Source of the DNA: Promethearchaeia archaeon
Lineage (GTDB): Archaea > Asgardarchaeota > Lokiarchaeia > Sigyniarchaeales > SOKP01
Reading direction: 5' to 3'
Length of the DNA stretch: 32,000 bases
Assembly (NCBI GenBank): GCA_046497275.1
Contig: JAWOFX010000044.1
Span: 1-32,000, forward strand
The notes beneath the pieces are model-generated. The model was not told the DNA's origin. It ran no database searches and worked only from the letters and a program-made list of their open reading frames with translations. Made by a program: the position numbers and the translations under genes. Shown here one piece after another: positions 1,894 to 11,344 of this stretch (positions within the stretch are counted from its first letter, which is position 1; each line of letters begins with the position of its first letter).

Positions 1894-4746
1894 TTAACTG
1901 GTAAACACAGTCATATCTCGTTTGATCCTAATTCTCCATTTTCGTAACTCATCTACAAGAAAGACACTGAATCCTGCAATAATTATAGCTATCCAATAGA
2001 ACGGATGAAACAGAGGAACTACATTAAAAGCAATTCCTAAGGGGGTATATAATATTAATAATTGTAATCCTAATGAAAGACCAGTTGCCCAGAATAGATG
2101 CTTATTTGGAAATAGCCAAAATGGCTTTTTATTTGACGTACACGAATACACGAACAATAATTCACAGAGGACTAAATTTGTAAAAACTATTGTTTGTGCT
2201 ATCGCGATTTGATATTCTTGTGCTGTATATGCGACCCCGAAGAAGGTGCCTCCAGAAACTAAAGCAGGATCTATCCCTCCGGTAGTCCATGCAGGAATTA
2301 AAACTGCCCAAAGTAAAATATAAAGCGTGATATCTGTAATTGATGTATATACACCCAATAAAAGGACAGGTCCTTTTATCTCTGATATTAGAGAAAACCC
2401 CTCTCGTGGTTTATCCTTCATTACATCTGGATCTGTTGGAGTGAACCCCAAAACCATTGCTGGAATTCCATCTGTGGCAATATTTAACCATAATATTTGA
2501 ATAGGTGTTATTGGAAGTGCGAGAAACGTAAGTACGAAGAATTTCATTACGATATAGGCCGTCAAAATTAAAAAGATCTCATCGAAATTTGTACTTAGCA
2601 TATATCGAAAGAAGCCTTTAGTAGTCTCGAAAATTCCACGTCCTTCCTCTATAGCAGCAACGATTGTGGAATAATCGTCATCCAATAAGATCATATCTGA
2701 TGCTTCTTGAGTTACTTCAGTCCCTTTTATACCCATTGAAACCCCAACATTTGCTCCTTTCACTGCAGGAGCATCATTTACTCCATCACCAGTCATAGAA
2801 ACGACATTTCCTTCTTGTTTTAATGCTTTAAGAATCCTTAATTTGTGTTCTGAGGTTACTCGTGCGAAAATATCGATATCTTTAATTTTTCTAAGTAATT
2901 CATCATTAGTCATTTCTTCTAATTCCGCCCCAGTTATTGCTTCATCATCTTTATCCGTTAAACCAATTTCCTTTGCAATAGCAATTGCAGTAATTTTATG
3001 ATCTCCTGTTATCATTATAGTCCTAATACCCGCGTTTCTGGCCACTTGTATGGAATTCTTTACTTCATCTCGAGCGGGATCGATAATTCCTGCCAAACCG
3101 AGATAAATAAAATCTTTTTCAATATCATCCTCACTATACCCTTCTTCTAATGGTTTATATCCAAGCCCTAAGACGCGCAAGGCATTTTCAGCGAATTCAT
3201 TATTCTTTGAAAGATATTTGTCCTTTATTTCTTCAATATTTTTTATATCTCCATCATATAATCCTTTGCCCGCTTTATTTATAAGAATGTCGGGTGCCCC
3301 TTTAATTAAAGAATATAATTGTCCATTCATTCGTACAACTACTGACATCATTTTTCTGTCAGAATTAAATGGAATCTCGTCTATCTTTTCTGTTTTCGTG
3401 TCTATATTCATTTTTTTAGCAAGAACCTTTAAAGATATTTCAGTTGGATCGCCTATAACATCGGTTTTATTAGTTCCATCTTTTCGGGGAGTGACTGTAG
3501 AATTATTACAATACATACACACTTCCAAATATCTCTTTAAATATTCATTGTCTTCGATTTTGACGCCCTCTCCAGAGTTTTTTACTATCTTCCCTTCAAT
3601 ATTATAACCAATACCTTCTACATCATATTCTTTTCCTCCGACAAAAACTTTTCGAACAGTCATCTCATTTTTTGTTAAGGTTCCTGTTTTATCAGAACAG
3701 ATAATATTAACTCTGCCCAATGTTTCTACGGCAGTAAGTGTTTTAACTAATGCATTACGCTCCGCCATTTTTCGCATTCCAATACTCATCACAACGGTTA
3801 TAACAACCACTAAACCCTCGGGAACCGCTGAGACGGCCAGACTAATTGCAACCTTAAATGCATCAATCATTTTCTCAATTTGATTCCCACCCCCAGTTGG
3901 AAAGGCAAAAACTAATATGGCTTCTGTAATAAAGACGATAGCACATATAATTATGATAATTATTCCTAATTTTCTTCCGAAAATATCTACTTCTTTTTGG
4001 AAAGGACTTTTTTCGTGTTCTTCCTCTTGTATTTTTTCGGCAATTTTCCCCACTTCTGTTTTCATACCCGTTCTTACAACGATAGCTTTGCCGTTTCCTC
4101 GAGTTATAATTGTATTACTGAAGACCATATTTTTCCTATCTGCCAATATTGTTTTTTCCTCATAAATGTTGAGATCTTTTTCAACTGGTTGAGATTCTCC
4201 TGTAAGAATTGCTTCGTCTGAATATAATGAATACGCTTTTACGAGTCGTGCATCCGCTGGTATTTTATCCCCCTCATCTATTTGGATTAAATCACCTGGA
4301 ACAACTTCTTTTATATCTATTTTTTTAATTTTCCCCTCTCTAATTACTTTTGCATAGTGAGGCGCCATCTTTTTTAAACTTTCTAATGCTTTTTCTGCTT
4401 TATATTCTTGGTAAAATCCTAAGATTGCGTTTACGATAAGAATTACAAAAATGACAATTGCATCCAAGAATTCTGAAGCTTCATTCCCTCGAGATAATTC
4501 AAAAAAACCGATTATAAGGGAAACAGCAATAGCAAAAAATAATAAATATACGAGAAAATCTCTAAATTGGCTAAAAAAGATTTCCCATGCTGTCACCTTT
4601 TTTGTTTCCTTTATTTCATTATATCCATATTTTTCTATTCTTTCTTGCACTTCTTCTTTACTAAGACCATCTTCTATGGATGTTTCTAATTCATCCGCTA
4701 CCTTTTCAACTTCTAAAGCATGAGCGCTTAATTCTTTAATTTCCAT
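1894..4746 (-). CDS. P-type ATPase, P2A (SERCA-like Ca2+-transporting), copy 1
   Basis: TGES, PEGL, DKTGTLT (phosphorylation site), KGAP, TGDGVND, M5 STNFDE, M6 WLNIATDG, M8 LCE; about 10 hydrophobic segments. Confidence 0.93.
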   Translation of the reverse strand: MEIKELSAHALEVEKVADELETSIEDGLSKEEVQERIEKYGYNEIKETKKVTAWEIFFSQFRDFLVYLLFFAIAVSLIIGFFELSRGNEASEFLDAIVIFVILIVNAILGFYQEYKAEKALESLKKMAPHYAKVIREGKIKKIDIKEVVPGDLIQIDEGDKIPADARLVKAYSLYSDEAILTGESQPVEKDLNIYEEKTILADRKNMVFSNTIITRGNGKAIVVRTGMKTEVGKIAEKIQEEEHEKSPFQKEVDIFGRKLGIIIIIICAIVFITEAILVFAFPTGGGNQIEKMIDAFKVAISLAVSAVPEGLVVVITVVMSIGMRKMAERNALVKTLTAVETLGRVNIICSDKTGTLTKNEMTVRKVFVGGKEYDVEGIGYNIEGKIVKNSGEGVKIEDNEYLKRYLEVCMYCNNSTVTPRKDGTNKTDVIGDPTEISLKVLAKKMNIDTKTEKIDEIPFNSDRKMMSVVVRMNGQLYSLIKGAPDILINKAGKGLYDGDIKNIEEIKDKYLSKNNEFAENALRVLGLGYKPLEEGYSEDDIEKDFIYLGLAGIIDPARDEVKNSIQVARNAGIRTIMITGDHKITAIAIAKEIGLTDKDDEAITGAELEEMTNDELLRKIKDIDIFARVTSEHKLRILKALKQEGNVVSMTGDGVNDAPAVKGANVGVSMGIKGTEVTQEASDMILLDDDYSTIVAAIEEGRGIFETTKGFFRYMLSTNFDEIFLILTAYIVMKFFVLTFLALPITPIQILWLNIATDGIPAMVLGFTPTDPDVMKDKPREGFSLISEIKGPVLLLGVYTSITDITLYILLWAVLIPAWTTGGIDPALVSGGTFFGVAYTAQEYQIAIAQTIVFTNLVLCELLFVYSCTSNKKPFWLFPNKHLFWATGLSLGLQLLILYTPLGIAFNVVPLFHPFYWIAIIIAGFSVFLVDELRKWRIRIKRDMTVFTS

Positions 4747-5189: not shown

Positions 5190-8039
5190 TTAACTTGTAA
5201 ATGTAGTCATCTTTCGCTTTATCCTGATCCTCCATTTTCGAATCTCATCTATAAGAAACACACTAAAAGCCCCTAAGAGAAGAACAATCCAATATTCTAA
5301 GCGATAAAGGGGTACTACTTTAAAAGCTATTCCTAAGGGTGTATAGAGGATTAATAACTGTAGTCCTAAGGAGAGTCCAGTTGCCCAGAAAAGATGTTTA
5401 TTCGGAAATAACCAAAAGGGCTTGATATTTGAAGTACATGCGAATACAAACAATAATTCACATACTACTAAGTTTGTAAATACTATTGTCTGTGCTAATG
5501 AGATCGCATATTCTCTTGCTGCCGTACCTGCAATCAAATAATTCATAGTTAAATTTGGATCAATTCCCGCTTGAGCCCATGCTGGAATTAAAACTGACCA
5601 TAACAAAAGATAAAGTGTTATATCGGTGATTGATGTATATATTCCAAGTAAAAGAACTGGGCCCTTAATTTCTGTTATTAATGAAAAACCTTTTCGGGGC
5701 TCTTCTTTCATAACATCAGGGTCTGTAGGAGTCAAACCGAGCACCATTGCGGGAATACCGTCCGTTGCAATATTCAACCATAATATTTGAACTGGTACGA
5801 CGGGTAAAGCGATGAAGGTAAATGCGAAGAACTTCATTACGATATATGCCGTAAGAATTAAAAATATTTCATCGAAATTCGTACTTAACATATATCTGAA
5901 GAATCCTTTTGTCGTTTCAAATATTCCTCTTCCTTCTTCTATTGCATCTACTATTGTAGAATAATCATCATCAAGTAAAATCATATCAGACGCCTCTCGG
6001 GTCACTTCCGTTCCTTTTATTCCCATTGCTACACCAACATTTGCTCCCTTTACTGCTGGGGCATCGTTTACTCCATCACCCGTCATTGAGACTACTTTTC
6101 CTTCACCTTTTAATGCCTTAAGTATCCTTAATTTATGTTCAGAAGTCACACGAGCAAAAACATCTATATTTTCAATCCTTCGGAGTAGTTCATCATTAGA
6201 CATTTCTTCTAATTCAGCACCAGTTATCGCTTCTTCATTATCTGTTAATCCAATCTCCTTTGCAATAGCTATAGCTGTAATTTTGTGATCTCCTGTAATC
6301 ATAATAGTTCGAATACCAGCCATTCGTGCTTCTTTGATGGATTGTTTTACCTCATCTCTCGCGGGGTCAATTATTCCTGCCAATCCGAGATATATAAAAT
6401 CTTGTTCAACCTCTTCTTTGGAATATCCCTCTTCTAAAGGTTTATATGCTATTCCCAGTACTCGTAGAGCATCTTTGGCAAATTCTTCGTTTTTAGAAAG
6501 ATATTTATCTTTAATCTTCTCTATTTGTTTAATTTCTCCGTTATAAAGCCCTTTTCCTGCTTTTTCTATAAGAACATCCGGTGCTCCTTTGATTAAGGAA
6601 AATAATTCTCCATTCATTCTAACTACAACAGACATCATCTTTCTATCGGAATTAAAAGGGATTTCATCAACTTTTTCTACTTCAGAATCGATATCCATCT
6701 TTTTTGCTAGGACTTTCAAGGATATTTCTGTAGGATCTCCAATAACATCGGTCTTTTTGGAATTTTCGTTTTTAGGATTGACTGTAGAGTTATTACAATA
6801 CAAGCATACTTCCAAATATCTTTTTAAATAATCATTTTCATCAATTAAGACTGGTTTTTCGGAATTATCCACAATTTTCCCTTCCAGAGAATATCCAACG
6901 CCTTCTACATCATATACCTTCCCTCCGAGAAATACCTTTTTAACTGTCATTTCATTTTTCGTCAATGTTCCCGTTTTATCCGAACATATGATGTTAACTC
7001 TTCCTAACGTTTCAACAGCGGTTAAAGTTTTCACTAAAGCATTCCTCTCCGCCATTCTTCGCATCCCTATACTCATGACTACCGTAATTACAACTACAAG
7101 ACCTTCTGGTACTGCCGATACCGCAAGACTAATTGCTATTTTAAAAGCTTCAATTATTGCATCAATTTCTTCTTGATTGAATTGAAGTCCCTCGTCTATT
7201 GTAATTAATATAAATTCTATAGCAAAAACGGCAAAACAAATAATTAGGATAATTATTCCTAACAATTTCCCAAAACTATCAACTTCCTTTTGAAAGGGAC
7301 TTTTTTCATATTCTTCTTCTTGTATTTTTTCAGCTATTTTTCCTACTTCAGTTTTCATCCCAGTTCTTACTACAATCGCAAGACCATTACCTCGTGTGAT
7401 AACTGTGTTACTGTAGACCATATTTTTTCTATCTGCCAACATTGTTTTTTCGTCATATAATTTAAGATCTTTTTCAACTGGTTGGGATTCTCCTGTAAGA
7501 ATTGCTTCATCAGCGTACAAGGAATAAGCTTTTATGAGTCTTCCATCTGCGGCAATTTTATCACCTTCATCTAATTTAAGTATGTCCCCTGGGACGACTT
7601 CTTTTACTTCAATTTTTTTAACTTTTCCATTTCTAATAACTTTTGCATAATGAGGTGCCATTTCTTTTAGGCTTTCTAATGCTCTTTCTGCCTTATATTC
7701 TTGATAAAATCCTAATATAGCGTTTACGATAAGGATTACAAATATAACAATGGCATCCACAAATTCTGAAGGCTCTTCACCGGAGTAAATGGAATAAACC
7801 CCAATAATAATTGATATAACAATCGCAAAAAATAACAAATAGACCAAGAAATCTTTAAATTGACTAAGAAAAATCTGCCAAGCTGAAATTCCTTTAGTTT
7901 TCTCAATTTCATTTGTACCGTATTTTTCAATTCGTTTTTTAGCTTCCTCTTCACTAAGACCATTCTTTGTCGATGTATCTAATTCATCCGCTACTTTTTC
8001 AACTTTTAATGAATGTACGTTTAATTCTTCATTTTTCAT
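5190..8039 (-). CDS. P-type ATPase, P2A (SERCA-like Ca2+-transporting), copy 2 (tandem paralog)
   Basis: Same motif set as copy 1; colinear with it over the whole length (949 vs 950 aa). Confidence 0.93.
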   Translation of the reverse strand: MKNEELNVHSLKVEKVADELDTSTKNGLSEEEAKKRIEKYGTNEIEKTKGISAWQIFLSQFKDFLVYLLFFAIVISIIIGVYSIYSGEEPSEFVDAIVIFVILIVNAILGFYQEYKAERALESLKEMAPHYAKVIRNGKVKKIEVKEVVPGDILKLDEGDKIAADGRLIKAYSLYADEAILTGESQPVEKDLKLYDEKTMLADRKNMVYSNTVITRGNGLAIVVRTGMKTEVGKIAEKIQEEEYEKSPFQKEVDSFGKLLGIIILIICFAVFAIEFILITIDEGLQFNQEEIDAIIEAFKIAISLAVSAVPEGLVVVITVVMSIGMRRMAERNALVKTLTAVETLGRVNIICSDKTGTLTKNEMTVKKVFLGGKVYDVEGVGYSLEGKIVDNSEKPVLIDENDYLKRYLEVCLYCNNSTVNPKNENSKKTDVIGDPTEISLKVLAKKMDIDSEVEKVDEIPFNSDRKMMSVVVRMNGELFSLIKGAPDVLIEKAGKGLYNGEIKQIEKIKDKYLSKNEEFAKDALRVLGIAYKPLEEGYSKEEVEQDFIYLGLAGIIDPARDEVKQSIKEARMAGIRTIMITGDHKITAIAIAKEIGLTDNEEAITGAELEEMSNDELLRRIENIDVFARVTSEHKLRILKALKGEGKVVSMTGDGVNDAPAVKGANVGVAMGIKGTEVTREASDMILLDDDYSTIVDAIEEGRGIFETTKGFFRYMLSTNFDEIFLILTAYIVMKFFAFTFIALPVVPVQILWLNIATDGIPAMVLGLTPTDPDVMKEEPRKGFSLITEIKGPVLLLGIYTSITDITLYLLLWSVLIPAWAQAGIDPNLTMNYLIAGTAAREYAISLAQTIVFTNLVVCELLFVFACTSNIKPFWLFPNKHLFWATGLSLGLQLLILYTPLGIAFKVVPLYRLEYWIVLLLGAFSVFLIDEIRKWRIRIKRKMTTFTS

Positions 8040-8317: not shown

Positions 8318-8325
8318 AAGGTGGT
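8318..8325 (+). promoter_or_regulatory. Shine-Dalgarno-like AAGGTGGT upstream of TTG 8328
   Basis: GGTG core 4 nt before an in-frame TTG; the nearest upstream in-frame stop is TAA 8307-8309. Confidence 0.55.
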
Positions 8326-8327
8326 TT

Positions 8328-8708
8328 TTGTTTAGGGTTAAGATTACAAAAACAGCATTAAAATTCATTTATCGAGAACAAGAAAAAAAATATCCGGATA
8401 ACAGCAATCGAAAACCGACAATTGCAGTATTTTATCATCAAAATTCAACGTGAACCACATTTTTCTGTGGTAATATCGTCGAAGTGGTAGATAAAAATAA
8501 AATTCTGAACGATTCGCATCTTTTTATTCTCTGGGATGATGTGGAGGGAAATCCACCTATCGATATATTTATTGAAGATCAAGTAATGGATGAGATTGAA
8601 CAAAAACCGGAATTACTAATTGATGCAGTTATAGGAGAAATAAAAGATAAAGAATATGGGATGCTGTTTATTAAAAAAGATTCAAATATATATATGGATA
8701 AAAAATGA
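8328..8708 (+). CDS. HesB-like (Fe-S biosynthesis-fold) putative selenoprotein 1, 126 aa, Sec at codon 42 (TGA 8451-8453)
   Basis: Translation through the TGA: MFRVKITKTALKFIYREQEKKYPDNSNRKPTIAVFYHQNST-U-TTFFCGNIVEVVDKNK...IDIFIEDQ...ELLIDAV...MDKK*. HesB-like N-terminus (xKIT..A..fI). Homology to the neighbouring paralog on both sides of the TGA. SECIS-like hairpin follows. Confidence 0.8.
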
Positions 8709-8740
8709 TCTGATCTTATAAAACCTCGAAGATTGGGGAT
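8705..8740 (+). ncRNA. Eukaryote-type SECIS element 1 (overlaps terminal stop codon)
   Basis: A-UGA-U (8705-8709), stem CUGAUCUU (8710-8717) with AAGAUUGG (8729-8736), 11-nt loop AUAAAACCUCG, then G-GA-U (8737-8740). Gives the U.U, G.A, A.G tandem core. Confidence 0.8.
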
Positions 8741-8741
8741 T

Positions 8742-8757
8742 GACGGTGCGTCCGTTT
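8742..8757 (+). terminator. Small hairpin GACGG-UGCGU-CCGUU directly after SECIS 1
   Basis: 5-bp stem (one G.U); positional equivalent of the hairpin after SECIS 2. Terminator role is a guess. Confidence 0.35.
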
Positions 8758-8910
8758 ATAGATTCCATATTAATTATGTGCTATAAATTAAAAGACAAAT
8801 ATAGAATAGAATTAAAGTAACTTCTTCTATTAAAATTTTAAAATATAATCTGAATTTTTTATTCAGTTAATTATTTAGATTATACTAAGAATATAATTAA
8901 GAAAAATAAT

Positions 8911-8916
8911 AAGGTG
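8911..8916 (+). promoter_or_regulatory. Shine-Dalgarno-like AAGGTG upstream of probable ATT start at 8925
   Basis: 8-nt spacer to ATT. A similar AAGGTG with a 9-nt spacer precedes the likely livG ATG at 31453. Confidence 0.5.
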
Positions 8917-8924
8917 TTCTTAGT

Positions 8925-9278
8925 ATTAAAATAACTCTTACAGAAGATGCTAAAGAAATAATTAAGGAACAGAGCAAAAAGATTCGTGAAAGAGAAAAAA
9001 TACAAAACATAGTATTAGCGATTTATCAATACACGAGTGGATCTTGATCTGGATATTTTTGCATGGATCTTGTTCAAATGGCAGACAAACGAGACGTTGA
9101 AAAAAATAGGAACTTCAAATATATGACAAATAATAATGGAATTGAAATTTATATAGAAAAAGATACCCTAAGCACTTTAAATTCAATTGAGGAACTAATA
9201 ATCGATGGAAAAGGAATCGAAAGATATGGTCAAAAAACTGCTCGACTTACCTTAATTAAAAATTACTTAAAAAAATGA
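8925..9278 (+). CDS. HesB-like putative selenoprotein 2, about 117 aa, Sec at codon 41 (TGA 9045-9047); probable ATT start
   Basis: Translation through the TGA: (M)KITLTEDAKEIIKEQSKKIREREKIQNIVLAIYQYTSGS-U-SGYFCMDLVQMADK...IEIYIEKD...ELIIDG...NYLKK*. The KITLTEDAKEII N-terminus is characteristic of HesB-like proteins. TGA aligns with that of paralog 1. SECIS-like hairpin follows. Start codon uncertain: no in-frame ATG/GTG/TTG upstream of the TGA. Confidence 0.8.
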
Positions 9279-9310
9279 TCTAATCTTACAAATATTAGAA
9301 GATTAGTGAT
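9275..9310 (+). ncRNA. Eukaryote-type SECIS element 2 (overlaps terminal stop codon)
   Basis: A-UGA-U (9275-9279), perfect stem CUAAUCUU (9280-9287) with AAGAUUAG (9299-9306), 11-nt loop ACAAAUAUUAG, then U-GA-U (9307-9310). Confidence 0.82.
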
Positions 9311-9314
9311 TTTT

Positions 9315-9335
9315 CAGGTTGCGCCTGTTTTTTTT
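9315..9335 (+). terminator. Hairpin CAGG-UUGCG-CCUG followed by an 8-T run, after SECIS 2
   Basis: 4-bp stem plus T-tract 9328-9335, in the gap before the convergent aconitase stop. Confidence 0.45.
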
Positions 9336-9418: not shown

Positions 9419-11344
9419 TTATTTTTGTTTGTTTCTGATATATGGCAATTTTCCGCCAGCTCTTAAAATCTCAGTCATTCTATTACTTAAATTATGAATT
9501 ACAGGTATTTCAGAATTTTGTGTGAGATTATGTACCATTAATTCTCTTTTCTCAAGAGATTCTAATTCAATTTCTATCTCATCGTCTTGATCAATAAGAT
9601 CATAATCATTCAATCTCTGAAAAGTTAAAGGCACAATTCCGAAATTAACAAGATTATCTAAATGGATTCTTGCAAACGATTTGGCAATAATCGCTTTAAT
9701 TCCCAAATATTTAGGAGCTATTGCAGCATGTTCTCGACTTGAACCTTGACCATAATTTTCTCCTCCTATAATAAATCCTCCATCACTTTCCAATGCTCTT
9801 TTTGAAAAGCTTGGGTCTATAGGATTGAAAACATATTGACTAATCTCGGGAATGTTACTTCTCAAAGGTAGAATTTTTGCTCCCGCAGGCATTATATGAT
9901 CCGTTGTAATATTATCTTCTACTTTAAGTAATACTTTTCCCTCCAATTTGGCAGCTAACGGAGGAAATTCCGGTAGAGATTTTATATTAGGCCCTCTGAC
10001 AATTTGTACATCTTTGGCCTCCCTAGGAGGTAAAGGGGGGATGATCATATTATCATTCACAATGAATTTTTTAGACATTTGTATTTTAGGAAACTCACCA
10101 AATTTCCGAGGATCTGTTATTATTCCTTCGATTGCAGCCATTGCAGCAGTCTCAGGACTTACAAGATATACGCTAGCACTTTTCGTTCCAGATCTGCCAA
10201 GAAAATTTCTATTAAATGTCCTTAAAGACACAGCATCACTTTTAGGAGCTAATCCTTGACCAAGACATGGTCCACAAGCATTTTCAAGGATCCTTGCTCC
10301 AGCTTCAATAAAATAGGCCATTTCTCCAGAACGAATCATATGGTTCACTACTTGACGAGATCCTGGAGAAATTGTAAGGACGGTATGTTGACTGATTGTT
10401 TTGTTTTTAAGCATATTAGCAGCAATTTTTAAGTCTCTTAGAGAAGAATTTGTACAACTGCCAATACAAACTTGATCAACATTCAATCCTTCAATTTCAT
10501 GTATTGGTTTAACATTCCCAGGACTATGAGGTTCAGCTACTAGAGGTTCAAGTTCATCTAAATTAATTTCGATAACATCATCATAGATAGCATCCTTATC
10601 CGGCTCTAATGAGGTCCACACTTCTTCTCTACTTTGTGCTTCTAAAAATACTCTTGTAATTTCATCCGATGGGAAAATTGAAGTTGTTGCTCCTGTTTCT
10701 GTTCCCATATTAGTGATTGTTGCTCTTTCTGGAACAGAAAGTGTACTAATACCCGGACCAGTATATTCTAATATCTTATTTACCGCTCCTTTCACGCCTA
10801 TTCTTCTTAAAACTTCTAAAATAATATCTTTTGCTGAAACAAATTCAGTCAATCTTCCAGTTAAACGTACATTAACAATTTCTGGCATTCTAAGATAGAA
10901 AGGCTCTCCTGCCATAGCAGCAGCAACATCTAACCCTCCTGATCCGATTGCAATCATTCCTATGCCTCCACAAGTGGATGTATGACTATCACTGCCTAAT
11001 AAACTTTTTCCAGGAACAGAGAATCTTTCAAGATGGATTTGATGACATATTCCATTTCCTGGTCGAGAAAAGAATAATCCATATTTAGCAGCAATATTCT
11101 GAAGATATCTATGATCATCTGCATTTCTAAAATCTGTTTGTAGGATATTATGATCCACATAACTTACGGATAATTCCGTTTTTACTCGTGGTACGTCCAT
11201 TTTTTCGAATTGAAGATATGTCAGCGTCCCTGTTGAATCTTGGGTAAGTGTTTGGTCCATTCTTATTCCAATCATTTCACCCTTTTTGGATTCTCCATCG
11301 ATGAGATGATCCTTTAAGAGCTTTTCCGCAAGTGTGTATCCCAT
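9419..11344 (-). CDS. Aconitate hydratase, single-chain about 640-aa type (aconitase family)
   Basis: DQTLTQD, VDHN, GICHQ, GSDSHT, IGSCTN, NACGPCLG, NRNF.GR, ITTDHI and NYGQGSSREHA motifs; three Fe-S ligand cysteines present. Confidence 0.9.
   Translation of the reverse strand: MGYTLAEKLLKDHLIDGESKKGEMIGIRMDQTLTQDSTGTLTYLQFEKMDVPRVKTELSVSYVDHNILQTDFRNADDHRYLQNIAAKYGLFFSRPGNGICHQIHLERFSVPGKSLLGSDSHTSTCGGIGMIAIGSGGLDVAAAMAGEPFYLRMPEIVNVRLTGRLTEFVSAKDIILEVLRRIGVKGAVNKILEYTGPGISTLSVPERATITNMGTETGATTSIFPSDEITRVFLEAQSREEVWTSLEPDKDAIYDDVIEINLDELEPLVAEPHSPGNVKPIHEIEGLNVDQVCIGSCTNSSLRDLKIAANMLKNKTISQHTVLTISPGSRQVVNHMIRSGEMAYFIEAGARILENACGPCLGQGLAPKSDAVSLRTFNRNFLGRSGTKSASVYLVSPETAAMAAIEGIITDPRKFGEFPKIQMSKKFIVNDNMIIPPLPPREAKDVQIVRGPNIKSLPEFPPLAAKLEGKVLLKVEDNITTDHIMPAGAKILPLRSNIPEISQYVFNPIDPSFSKRALESDGGFIIGGENYGQGSSREHAAIAPKYLGIKAIIAKSFARIHLDNLVNFGIVPLTFQRLNDYDLIDQDDEIEIELESLEKRELMVHNLTQNSEIPVIHNLSNRMTEILRAGGKLPYIRNKQK

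Follow-up and report, generated by a model that had tools for sequence, protein, structure and literature searches.

Eleven selenoprotein families have been counted for all archaea (2026 review, PMC13188914); for the Asgard archaea, five were described in 2016 by Mariotti et al. (PMC4989117) and seven, five widespread and two rare, in 2024 by Huang et al. (PMC11227280). All of the published Asgard and archaeal families were found via homology to known selenoproteins. The lokiSECIS, a selenocysteine insertion sequence (SECIS), is defined by an AUGA, a 9-bp stem, an 11-nt loop with an A-rich start and an ultraconserved terminal G, and a GA, and is located at the very end of the coding sequence, with a UGA stop codon embedded in the AUGA in the case of VhuU.1 (PMC4989117); it corresponds to the type I eSECIS-like element of Huang et al. 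(PMC11227280). An archaeal selenoprotein with a lokiSECIS is thus already known, and so is selenocysteine (Sec) on the HesB fold: the TIGR01911 family (HesB_rel_seleno) of Methanococcales and some bacteria consists of small single-domain proteins of the IscA/HesB fold, of no known function, with one Sec in the loop of the first conserved HesB Cys, and the HesB-like selenoprotein family has the motif UxGP (PMC13188914). Here we describe two tandem genes, A and B, from the metagenome-assembled genome of a Promethearchaeia archaeon of the Lokiarchaeia (GenBank assembly GCA_046497275.1), in a stretch of 32,000 nucleotides (positions 1 to 32,000 of contig JAWOFX010000044.1) that we call the window. 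Both are very probably Sec-decoded selenoprotein genes of the HesB fold, each with its own lokiSECIS, as judged from sequence analysis and structural models; this assessment concerns their identity and leaves their function aside.

The gene pair lies between a divergently transcribed ATPase gene and an aconitase-family gene, a region in which translation table 11 yields only short plus-strand open reading frames (ORFs). Under this table, gene A appears as two ORFs (8328-8453 and 8484-8708) and gene B only as the segment 9063-9278, while its frame is open from 8913, directly after a TAA at 8910-8912, giving 121 codons when counted from that stop. A sequence-only reading of this DNA had proposed that extension through one TGA each restores a tandem pair of genes with an aligned in-frame UGA in a U-x4-C motif, and the frames proved to be as described. 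The predicted read-through lengths of 126 and about 117 aa were likewise reproduced, the latter if translation starts at the ATT at 8925. The two read-through proteins share 25% identity and 52% positives over 102 residues (BLASTP E value of 6e-11), in an alignment that spans the TGA and places U on U and C on C; the local motifs are U-TTFFC in gene A and U-SGYFC in gene B. By sequence, the genes are diverged tandem paralogues, and their match across the TGA is far beyond chance because the same TGA column recurs in all relatives that we aligned.

We looked for relatives in 154 genomes from the same order by six-frame search and in 400 genomes from the phylum with a profile. In the former, 49 of the 154 genomes contained relatives, all within one family; at the level of this family the profile search found them in 53 of 134 genomes. 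Nearly every relative had exactly one in-frame TGA. Thirty-eight full-length members from 30 loci and at least 12 genera were aligned and fall into two subfamilies, A (..AIFYYSSxx-U-TMxFCGNVVELVEK..LFIKKxxNVYG) and B (..LAIYQYxxRS-U-SGxFCxDxVQL..), which occur as a tandem A + B pair in many genera, as in the window. The TGA was present at the same column in 38/38 members and a Cys at +5 in 38/38, and in the joint alignment these two were the only invariant columns. Protein-level conservation was equally strong on either side of the TGA. Among the 38 members the TGA was never shifted or replaced by TAA or TAG, and no orthologues with assorted non-Cys residues at the Sec column were found. A related-locus search with gene A as the query found nothing.

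Both a conserved TGA and Cys replacements at this column, which the sequence-only reading had suggested looking for in other genomes, were thus found. Cys homologues at the Sec column comprise seven database proteins (P0024, P0025, P0034, P0036, P0032, P0044, and P0059) and a third tandem paralogue (C-type), located between A and B in one genus. In other families and in other classes of the phylum, weaker relatives likewise have a single TGA at this column (contexts SSS-U-SG, RG-U-CG, and IG-U-GG), in most cases together with a SECIS of their own. A representative protein database of 1.84 billion sequences returned 72 matches, mostly fragments starting just after the TGA or ending just before it; the full-length matches have W or Cys at the Sec column, W being TGA translated as Trp, and the public gene calls for relatives are fragments annotated as hypothetical proteins. 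The expectation that standard annotation would truncate or miss both genes was borne out: public annotation truncates or mistranslates the genes of the A/B family.

Downstream of each gene we found a lokiSECIS (Table 1), an addition to the sequence-only reading, which had missed both elements. Each has a 9-11-9 architecture with the AUGA directly 5' and the GA directly 3' of the stem, and in each the AUGA includes the stop codon of the gene. The apical loops, AUAAAACCUCG and ACAAAUAUUAG, begin A-rich and contain the terminal G; the loop of the gene A element (8718-8728) is 11 nt long and has this G at its end, while that of gene B (9288-9298), also 11 nt, ends in AG. The gene B element has a folding z score of -2.1. 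Judged from their sequences, the predicted window elements match the published lokiSECIS (Mariotti et al. 2016) point by point, and they would serve a gene family not previously linked to it.

Equivalent elements lie 3' of 34 of the 38 relatives, 244 to 280 nt past the Sec codon. In the 34 aligned elements the UGA of the AUGA and the 3' GA were invariant, while the first base was A in 33 and G in 1; the terminal loop G was invariant in SECIS alignment A2. The stem is paired in 93% of the cells of the 34-element alignment, with changes on both sides in 8 of the 9 pairs (51 cells), and the covariation score of 0.544, compared with 0.09 to 0.15 when the 3' partners were slid, was reached by none of 500 shuffles. 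The family elements are also very alike in sequence (stem top CUU/AAG, loop xAAAUxxUAG). Core variants were seen as ACGA 3' of the gene B orthologue in locus L028 (G145, same genus), GUGA in L031, and AUGU in L052, and the SECIS in L056 appears to be disrupted. Elsewhere in the window's genome (G000), 9-11-9 elements accompany two hdrA-vhuD loci, in each of which vhuD has two in-frame TGAs. The likeness to the vhuD SECIS rests on a pattern scan that is not specific alone: it gave 43 matches in the genome versus 15 to 33 in shuffled genomes. A covariance model (R1) built from the 34 family elements was tried and rejected. It recovered only the two window elements from the genome, and its scores for vhuD, selD, and other loci with a SECIS were no better than chance; the model gives no cross-validation because it is dominated by family-specific sequence. 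The sole Rfam result for the region, a sub-threshold snoZ247 match over the gene A element, was dismissed.

Just past each SECIS the family carries a second, small hairpin of 4 to 5 bp, GC-rich and with a UGCG-type loop, which lies 2 to 5 nt beyond the GA and shows compensatory changes across the family. In this genome it also occurs past the SECIS of vhuD and past two further SECIS-like elements (G000 C109, C100, and C167). This mini-hairpin, possibly a terminator or else an accessory part of the SECIS, sets the family elements apart from the lokiSECIS as published, since we found no such structure described where Mariotti et al. 2016 (PMC4989117) treat the lokiSECIS.

The genome encodes the Sec machinery, as the sequence-only reading had expected. 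An Rfam search detected tRNA-Sec (49.4 bits) with the anticodon UCA, the anticodon loop CUUCAAA, and, in the T-arm region, an insertion of 30 nt; ARAGORN missed this tRNA. Matches of identical score were observed at the ends of two contigs (G000:C33:11-129 and C165:63-181), adjoining SepSecS on one and EFSec on the other, and these ends are probably one locus split by the assembly. SepSecS (381 bits), PSTK (173 bits), and EFSec (234 bits) were identified; PSTK and EFSec are under the curated equivalog cut-offs, yet they are clear best matches. SelD has its own in-frame TGA, and SepSecS occurs in 59 of 61 genomes of the family. The prediction that both UGAs encode Sec is strongly supported because the UGA column is conserved, Cys homologues exist, the lokiSECIS covaries, and the Sec machinery is complete.

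Table 1. Coordinates of the two predicted selenoprotein genes, their signals, and the flanking genes in the 32,000-nt window
Feature	Position	Strand	Details or basis
Gene A, subfamily A of the predicted HesB-fold selenoprotein family	8328..8708	+	126 codons, putative TTG start, TGA stop 8706-8708
Gene A in-frame TGA, predicted Sec codon (U42)	8451..8453	+	Cys partner TGT 8466-8468
Gene B, subfamily B	8925..9278	+	117 codons from putative ATT start; TGA stop 9276-9278
Gene B in-frame TGA, predicted Sec codon	9045..9047	+	Cys partner TGC 9060-9062
Shine-Dalgarno-like GGTGG, 5' of gene A	8320..8324	+	Read from sequence
Shine-Dalgarno-like GGTGT, 5' of gene B	8913..8917	+	Orthologues: GGTGA, 6 nt, then ATG
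Predicted lokiSECIS of gene A	8705..8739	+	AUGA 8705-8708; stem 8709-8717 with 8729-8737 (9 bp); GA 8738-8739
Predicted lokiSECIS of gene B	9275..9309	+	AUGA 9275-9278; stem 9279-9287 with 9299-9307; GA 9308-9309
Small GC-rich hairpin just past SECIS A, then short T run	8742..8756	+	Fold; 5 bp, loop UGCGU
Small GC-rich hairpin past SECIS B, then T8	9315..9327	+	Fold
P2-type (PEGL) cation ATPase gene, divergently transcribed	5190..8039	-	Pfam
Aconitase-family gene	9419-11344	-	Flanks gene pair

We propose that the Lokiarchaeia (Promethearchaeota) genome carries two tandemly duplicated selenoprotein genes that would be expressed separately, each probably being its own transcription unit because each has its own Shine-Dalgarno-like motif, SECIS, and T-rich end. 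The internal UGA in each mRNA would be decoded as Sec by tRNA-Sec and EFSec under the direction of the lokiSECIS, which begins at the gene's own UGA stop some 230 to 255 nt past the Sec codon, while the terminal UGA would act as a stop, since the ribosome must presumably unwind the SECIS core to reach it. The products would adopt the IscA/HesB fold, with Sec at the place where A-type carriers hold their first cluster-ligand Cys.

The sequence-only reading had called the proteins HesB-like, and in terms of fold this holds. AlphaFold models of gene B (predicted local distance difference test score of 88.4) and gene A (85.8) both gave IscA and SufA as the top Foldseek matches in the Protein Data Bank (PDB), with a probability of 1.0, and the matching AlphaFold database clusters contain FeS-cluster-biogenesis, ErpA, and IscA entries. 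VIA-align matched the gene B model to E. coli IscA with a Z score of 10.1 and a root-mean-square deviation of 3.4 Å over 97/97 residues; the best Z scores were 10.1, 9.9, 9.5, and 9.3, the ten best matches were all of the HesB fold, and the next unrelated fold scored 2.9. In the models Sec is located in the loop between two long strands, as is the chalcogen ligand of IscA, SufA, and ErpA (PF01521), and the local SGS-U-SGY of gene B resembles the GG-C-SG of IscA. Unlike these carriers, whose three cluster-ligand Cys are one in the loop and a C-terminal C-x-C pair, the window proteins have Sec for Cys and an extra invariant Cys at +5; no C-terminal Cys is found in subfamilies A and B, in which the loop ligand position is held by Sec. 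Carrier-like, Cys-rich C-terminal tails are present in the more distant Asgard members. A profile search of PDB sequences gave nothing relevant. The segment CGNIVEVVDK of gene A gave weak, nonsignificant matches to Desulfoferrodoxin-N and FeS4 (E values of 0.14 and 0.057), a desulforedoxin-like similarity that is at most a hint of a metal knuckle.

Several observations weigh against the proposed identity or an iron-sulfur (Fe-S) carrier role, or leave parts of the gene models uncertain. At the sequence level, gene B matched PF01521 (Fe-S_biosyn) with 23.1 bits and an E value of 9e-5, under the gathering cut-off of 26.3, gene A did not match it, and no family member reaches a curated hidden Markov model (HMM) threshold; at an E value of up to 0.01, 2 of the 38 members matched PF01521. 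The probable equivalence of Sec to the first cluster-ligand Cys of IscA is based on the range of the Pfam match, the loop position in the models, and the GG-C-SG-like local sequence, and the lack of the C-terminal Cys pair weakens the Fe-S carrier reading. The genome is a metagenomic assembly with an estimated contamination of 4.4%. The TTG of gene A lies only 3 nt after the Shine-Dalgarno-like motif, and gene B lacks ATG, GTG, or TTG between the upstream TAA and its conserved N-terminus. The end of translation is placed at the terminal UGA tentatively, because the UGA that serves as the stop codon is part of the SECIS.

The orthologues show how starts and stops vary across the family. At the place of the gene B ATT they have ATG, or ATA in one case, 6 to 7 nt after GGTGN. 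Most subfamily-A orthologues have GGTGA or GGTGG at a fixed 6 nt from a conserved TTT-AAR. A canonical start is absent in 13 of the 24 subfamily-A genes, which have an in-frame stop 0 to 2 codons before the TTT-AAR, and in those 13 genes the TTT-AAR follows GGTGA by exactly 6 nt. At the other end, the orthologues of gene A terminate as ..NVYG-TAA a few nucleotides 5' of the AUGA; in the window, small indels (positions 8690-8708, compared with L028 and others) shift the frame, so that the protein ends as ..NIYMDKK and the UGA within the AUGA becomes the stop. The stop of gene B is the SECIS UGA too, and nearly all of its orthologues stop at a TAA upstream of the SECIS.

With regard to function, we tentatively favor a carrier protein whose Sec/Cys pair may bind iron, an Fe-S cluster, or another soft metal, the pair being completed across a dimer, as happens in IscA. 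By analogy, a metal or cluster site is preferred to a redox role because Sec and Cys at +5 are the only invariant residues and because related proteins with this scaffold hold an Fe-S cluster at the same loop, across the dimer. The same two residues, sole invariant and in the same loop, would also suit a reversible Sec/Cys+5 selenenylsulfide, which would make the proteins small oxidoreductases or persulfide/perselenide relays on a HesB scaffold. We regard this as a possible, somewhat less favored role. Most uncharacterized prokaryotic selenoproteins have Sec-Cys redox motifs (PMC13188914), the absence in subfamilies A and B of the C-terminal cluster-ligand pair of IscA points the same way, and the structural matches of the gene B model include DsrR (Z score of 8.4), which has the IscA fold and belongs to sulfur metabolism. 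However, no known redox motif has the U-x4-C spacing, the fold is shared with Fe-S carriers and is not the thioredoxin fold, and the tails of the distant Asgard members resemble those of carriers.

The shared fold, the position of Sec in the loop after the second strand, and the weak Fe-S_biosyn match of gene B could suggest that the genes are ordinary members of the catalogued TIGR01911 family, to which a HesB-like label might seem to assign them. This is improbable, and here the HesB-like label of the sequence-only reading needs refining. Genes A and B gave no match to TIGR01911 (cut-off of 66.35 bits) at E values of up to 10, nor did any of the 38 members at up to 0.01, and the cut-off was exceeded in none of 201 Asgard genomes, including 40 of the same family. 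The UxGP motif is absent in genes A and B, which have U-x4-C instead, and their SECIS is of the eukaryote-like loki type, as opposed to the GAA_A type of euryarchaea. Moreover, the window family is restricted to Asgard archaea and forms a tandem A/B pair in many genera, unlike TIGR01911. The nearest curated sequence family is NF041239, the CC/Se motif (seleno)protein first predicted in Moorella thermoacetica, which is listed as bacterial and not marked as archaeal (PMC13188914). All scores are below its cut-off of 40 bits, including 16.6 bits (E value of 0.006) for gene B and 37.5 bits for the best distant Asgard relative with a U-C motif; gene A did not match, none of the 201 Asgard genomes exceeded the cut-off, and the Cys of the window proteins is at +5, not adjoining Sec. 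On the evidence of these profiles and models, genes A and B represent a distinct family with the HesB/IscA fold, with NF041239 as its nearest curated relative, and are not members of TIGR01911.

Some public pipelines translate the TGA of relatives as W, as would be correct if TGA encoded an ordinary amino acid here, either through reassignment of the code (Trp or Gly) or through SECIS-independent near-cognate read-through. We consider this very improbable. Long housekeeping ORFs of the window lack in-frame TGA, and TGA is not a general sense codon here, because the neighboring ORFs, 949 and 641 aa long, are uninterrupted under table 11. In addition, TGA ends both genes A and B, the homologues have Cys and not Trp at the column, and a dedicated Sec machinery and SECIS are present. 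That the TGAs are real stops in decayed pseudogenes or among four unrelated small ORFs, as the short table 11 ORFs and the fragmentary hypothetical proteins of public gene calls would have it, can practically be dismissed given the equal conservation on both sides of a TGA that never moves or becomes TAA or TAG in 38 sequences from at least 12 genera, and the covarying SECIS past each gene.

What appears to be new is the family itself, together with its U-x4-C motif and the tandem arrangement of A and B: the family is not mentioned in Mariotti 2016, Sun 2021, Valentin-Alvarado 2024, Huang 2024 with its supplements, or the 2026 review, although it may have been reported elsewhere. Within one Lokiarchaeia family about 40% of the genomes carry it, frequently as two copies, yet it was missed by surveys, and UGA-containing relatives are also found in other Asgard classes. 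If the Sec prediction is correct, the Asgard selenoproteome is enlarged, and about 35 new covarying lokiSECIS examples become available for modeling the archaeal-to-eukaryotic SECIS transition. Such genes are split or mistranslated by standard annotation, and the proteins would offer a small tractable system with selenium at the place of a cluster ligand of Fe-S carriers. It is tempting to go further and to assume an uncatalogued phylum-wide Asgard selenoprotein family, the twelfth in archaea, that would unite subfamilies A and B, the U-C and U-S-G types of other classes, and the Cys paralogues, in which selenium would ligate a metal or Fe-S site in the Sec/Cys loop of the IscA scaffold and about half of the A-type genes, those without ATG, GTG, or TTG, would start at a non-canonical codon at a fixed Shine-Dalgarno distance; taken as a whole, this combination is rather unlikely.

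Upstream of the selenoprotein genes the window contains two tandem paralogues of a P2-type (PEGL motif) cation ATPase, each with about 950 aa, on the minus strand (1894-4746 and 5190-8039). An ATPase adjoins the selenoprotein genes in 34 of 41 related loci and in none of 7 distant members. A functional link between the two is unsupported, with the synteny being lost in distant members and the PEGL-type pump not being a soft-metal pump.

Other parts of the genome yielded further candidates. At a distance of 1.3 kb downstream of SepSecS and tRNA-Sec, a 110-aa Cys-type HesB-like ORF (G000:C33:4765-5097; L103:1489-1821) matched Fe-S_biosyn with an E value of 1.2e-4, and the alignment of its Cys to the Sec column is weak. 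A link of this ORF with SepSecS was rejected, since the adjacency is found only within the genus and is probably due to chance. On contig C118 (minus strand, AUGA at plus-strand coordinate 75990; L083), an ORF ends in ..PDSGC-TGA-TGA, with the frame open for about 38 more codons, and past it lies a SECIS-like hairpin that has either a loop of 12 nt or GG for GA. On contig C100 (minus strand, AUGA at plus-strand coordinate 58512; L082), a perfect lokiSECIS with a mini-hairpin lies 24 nt past an ORF of about 70 codons, in which a TGA (..GEPSG-U-AY..) stands in frame 17 codons before the stop; with a hydrophobic helix at the N-terminus, the product is a candidate for a small membrane selenoprotein.

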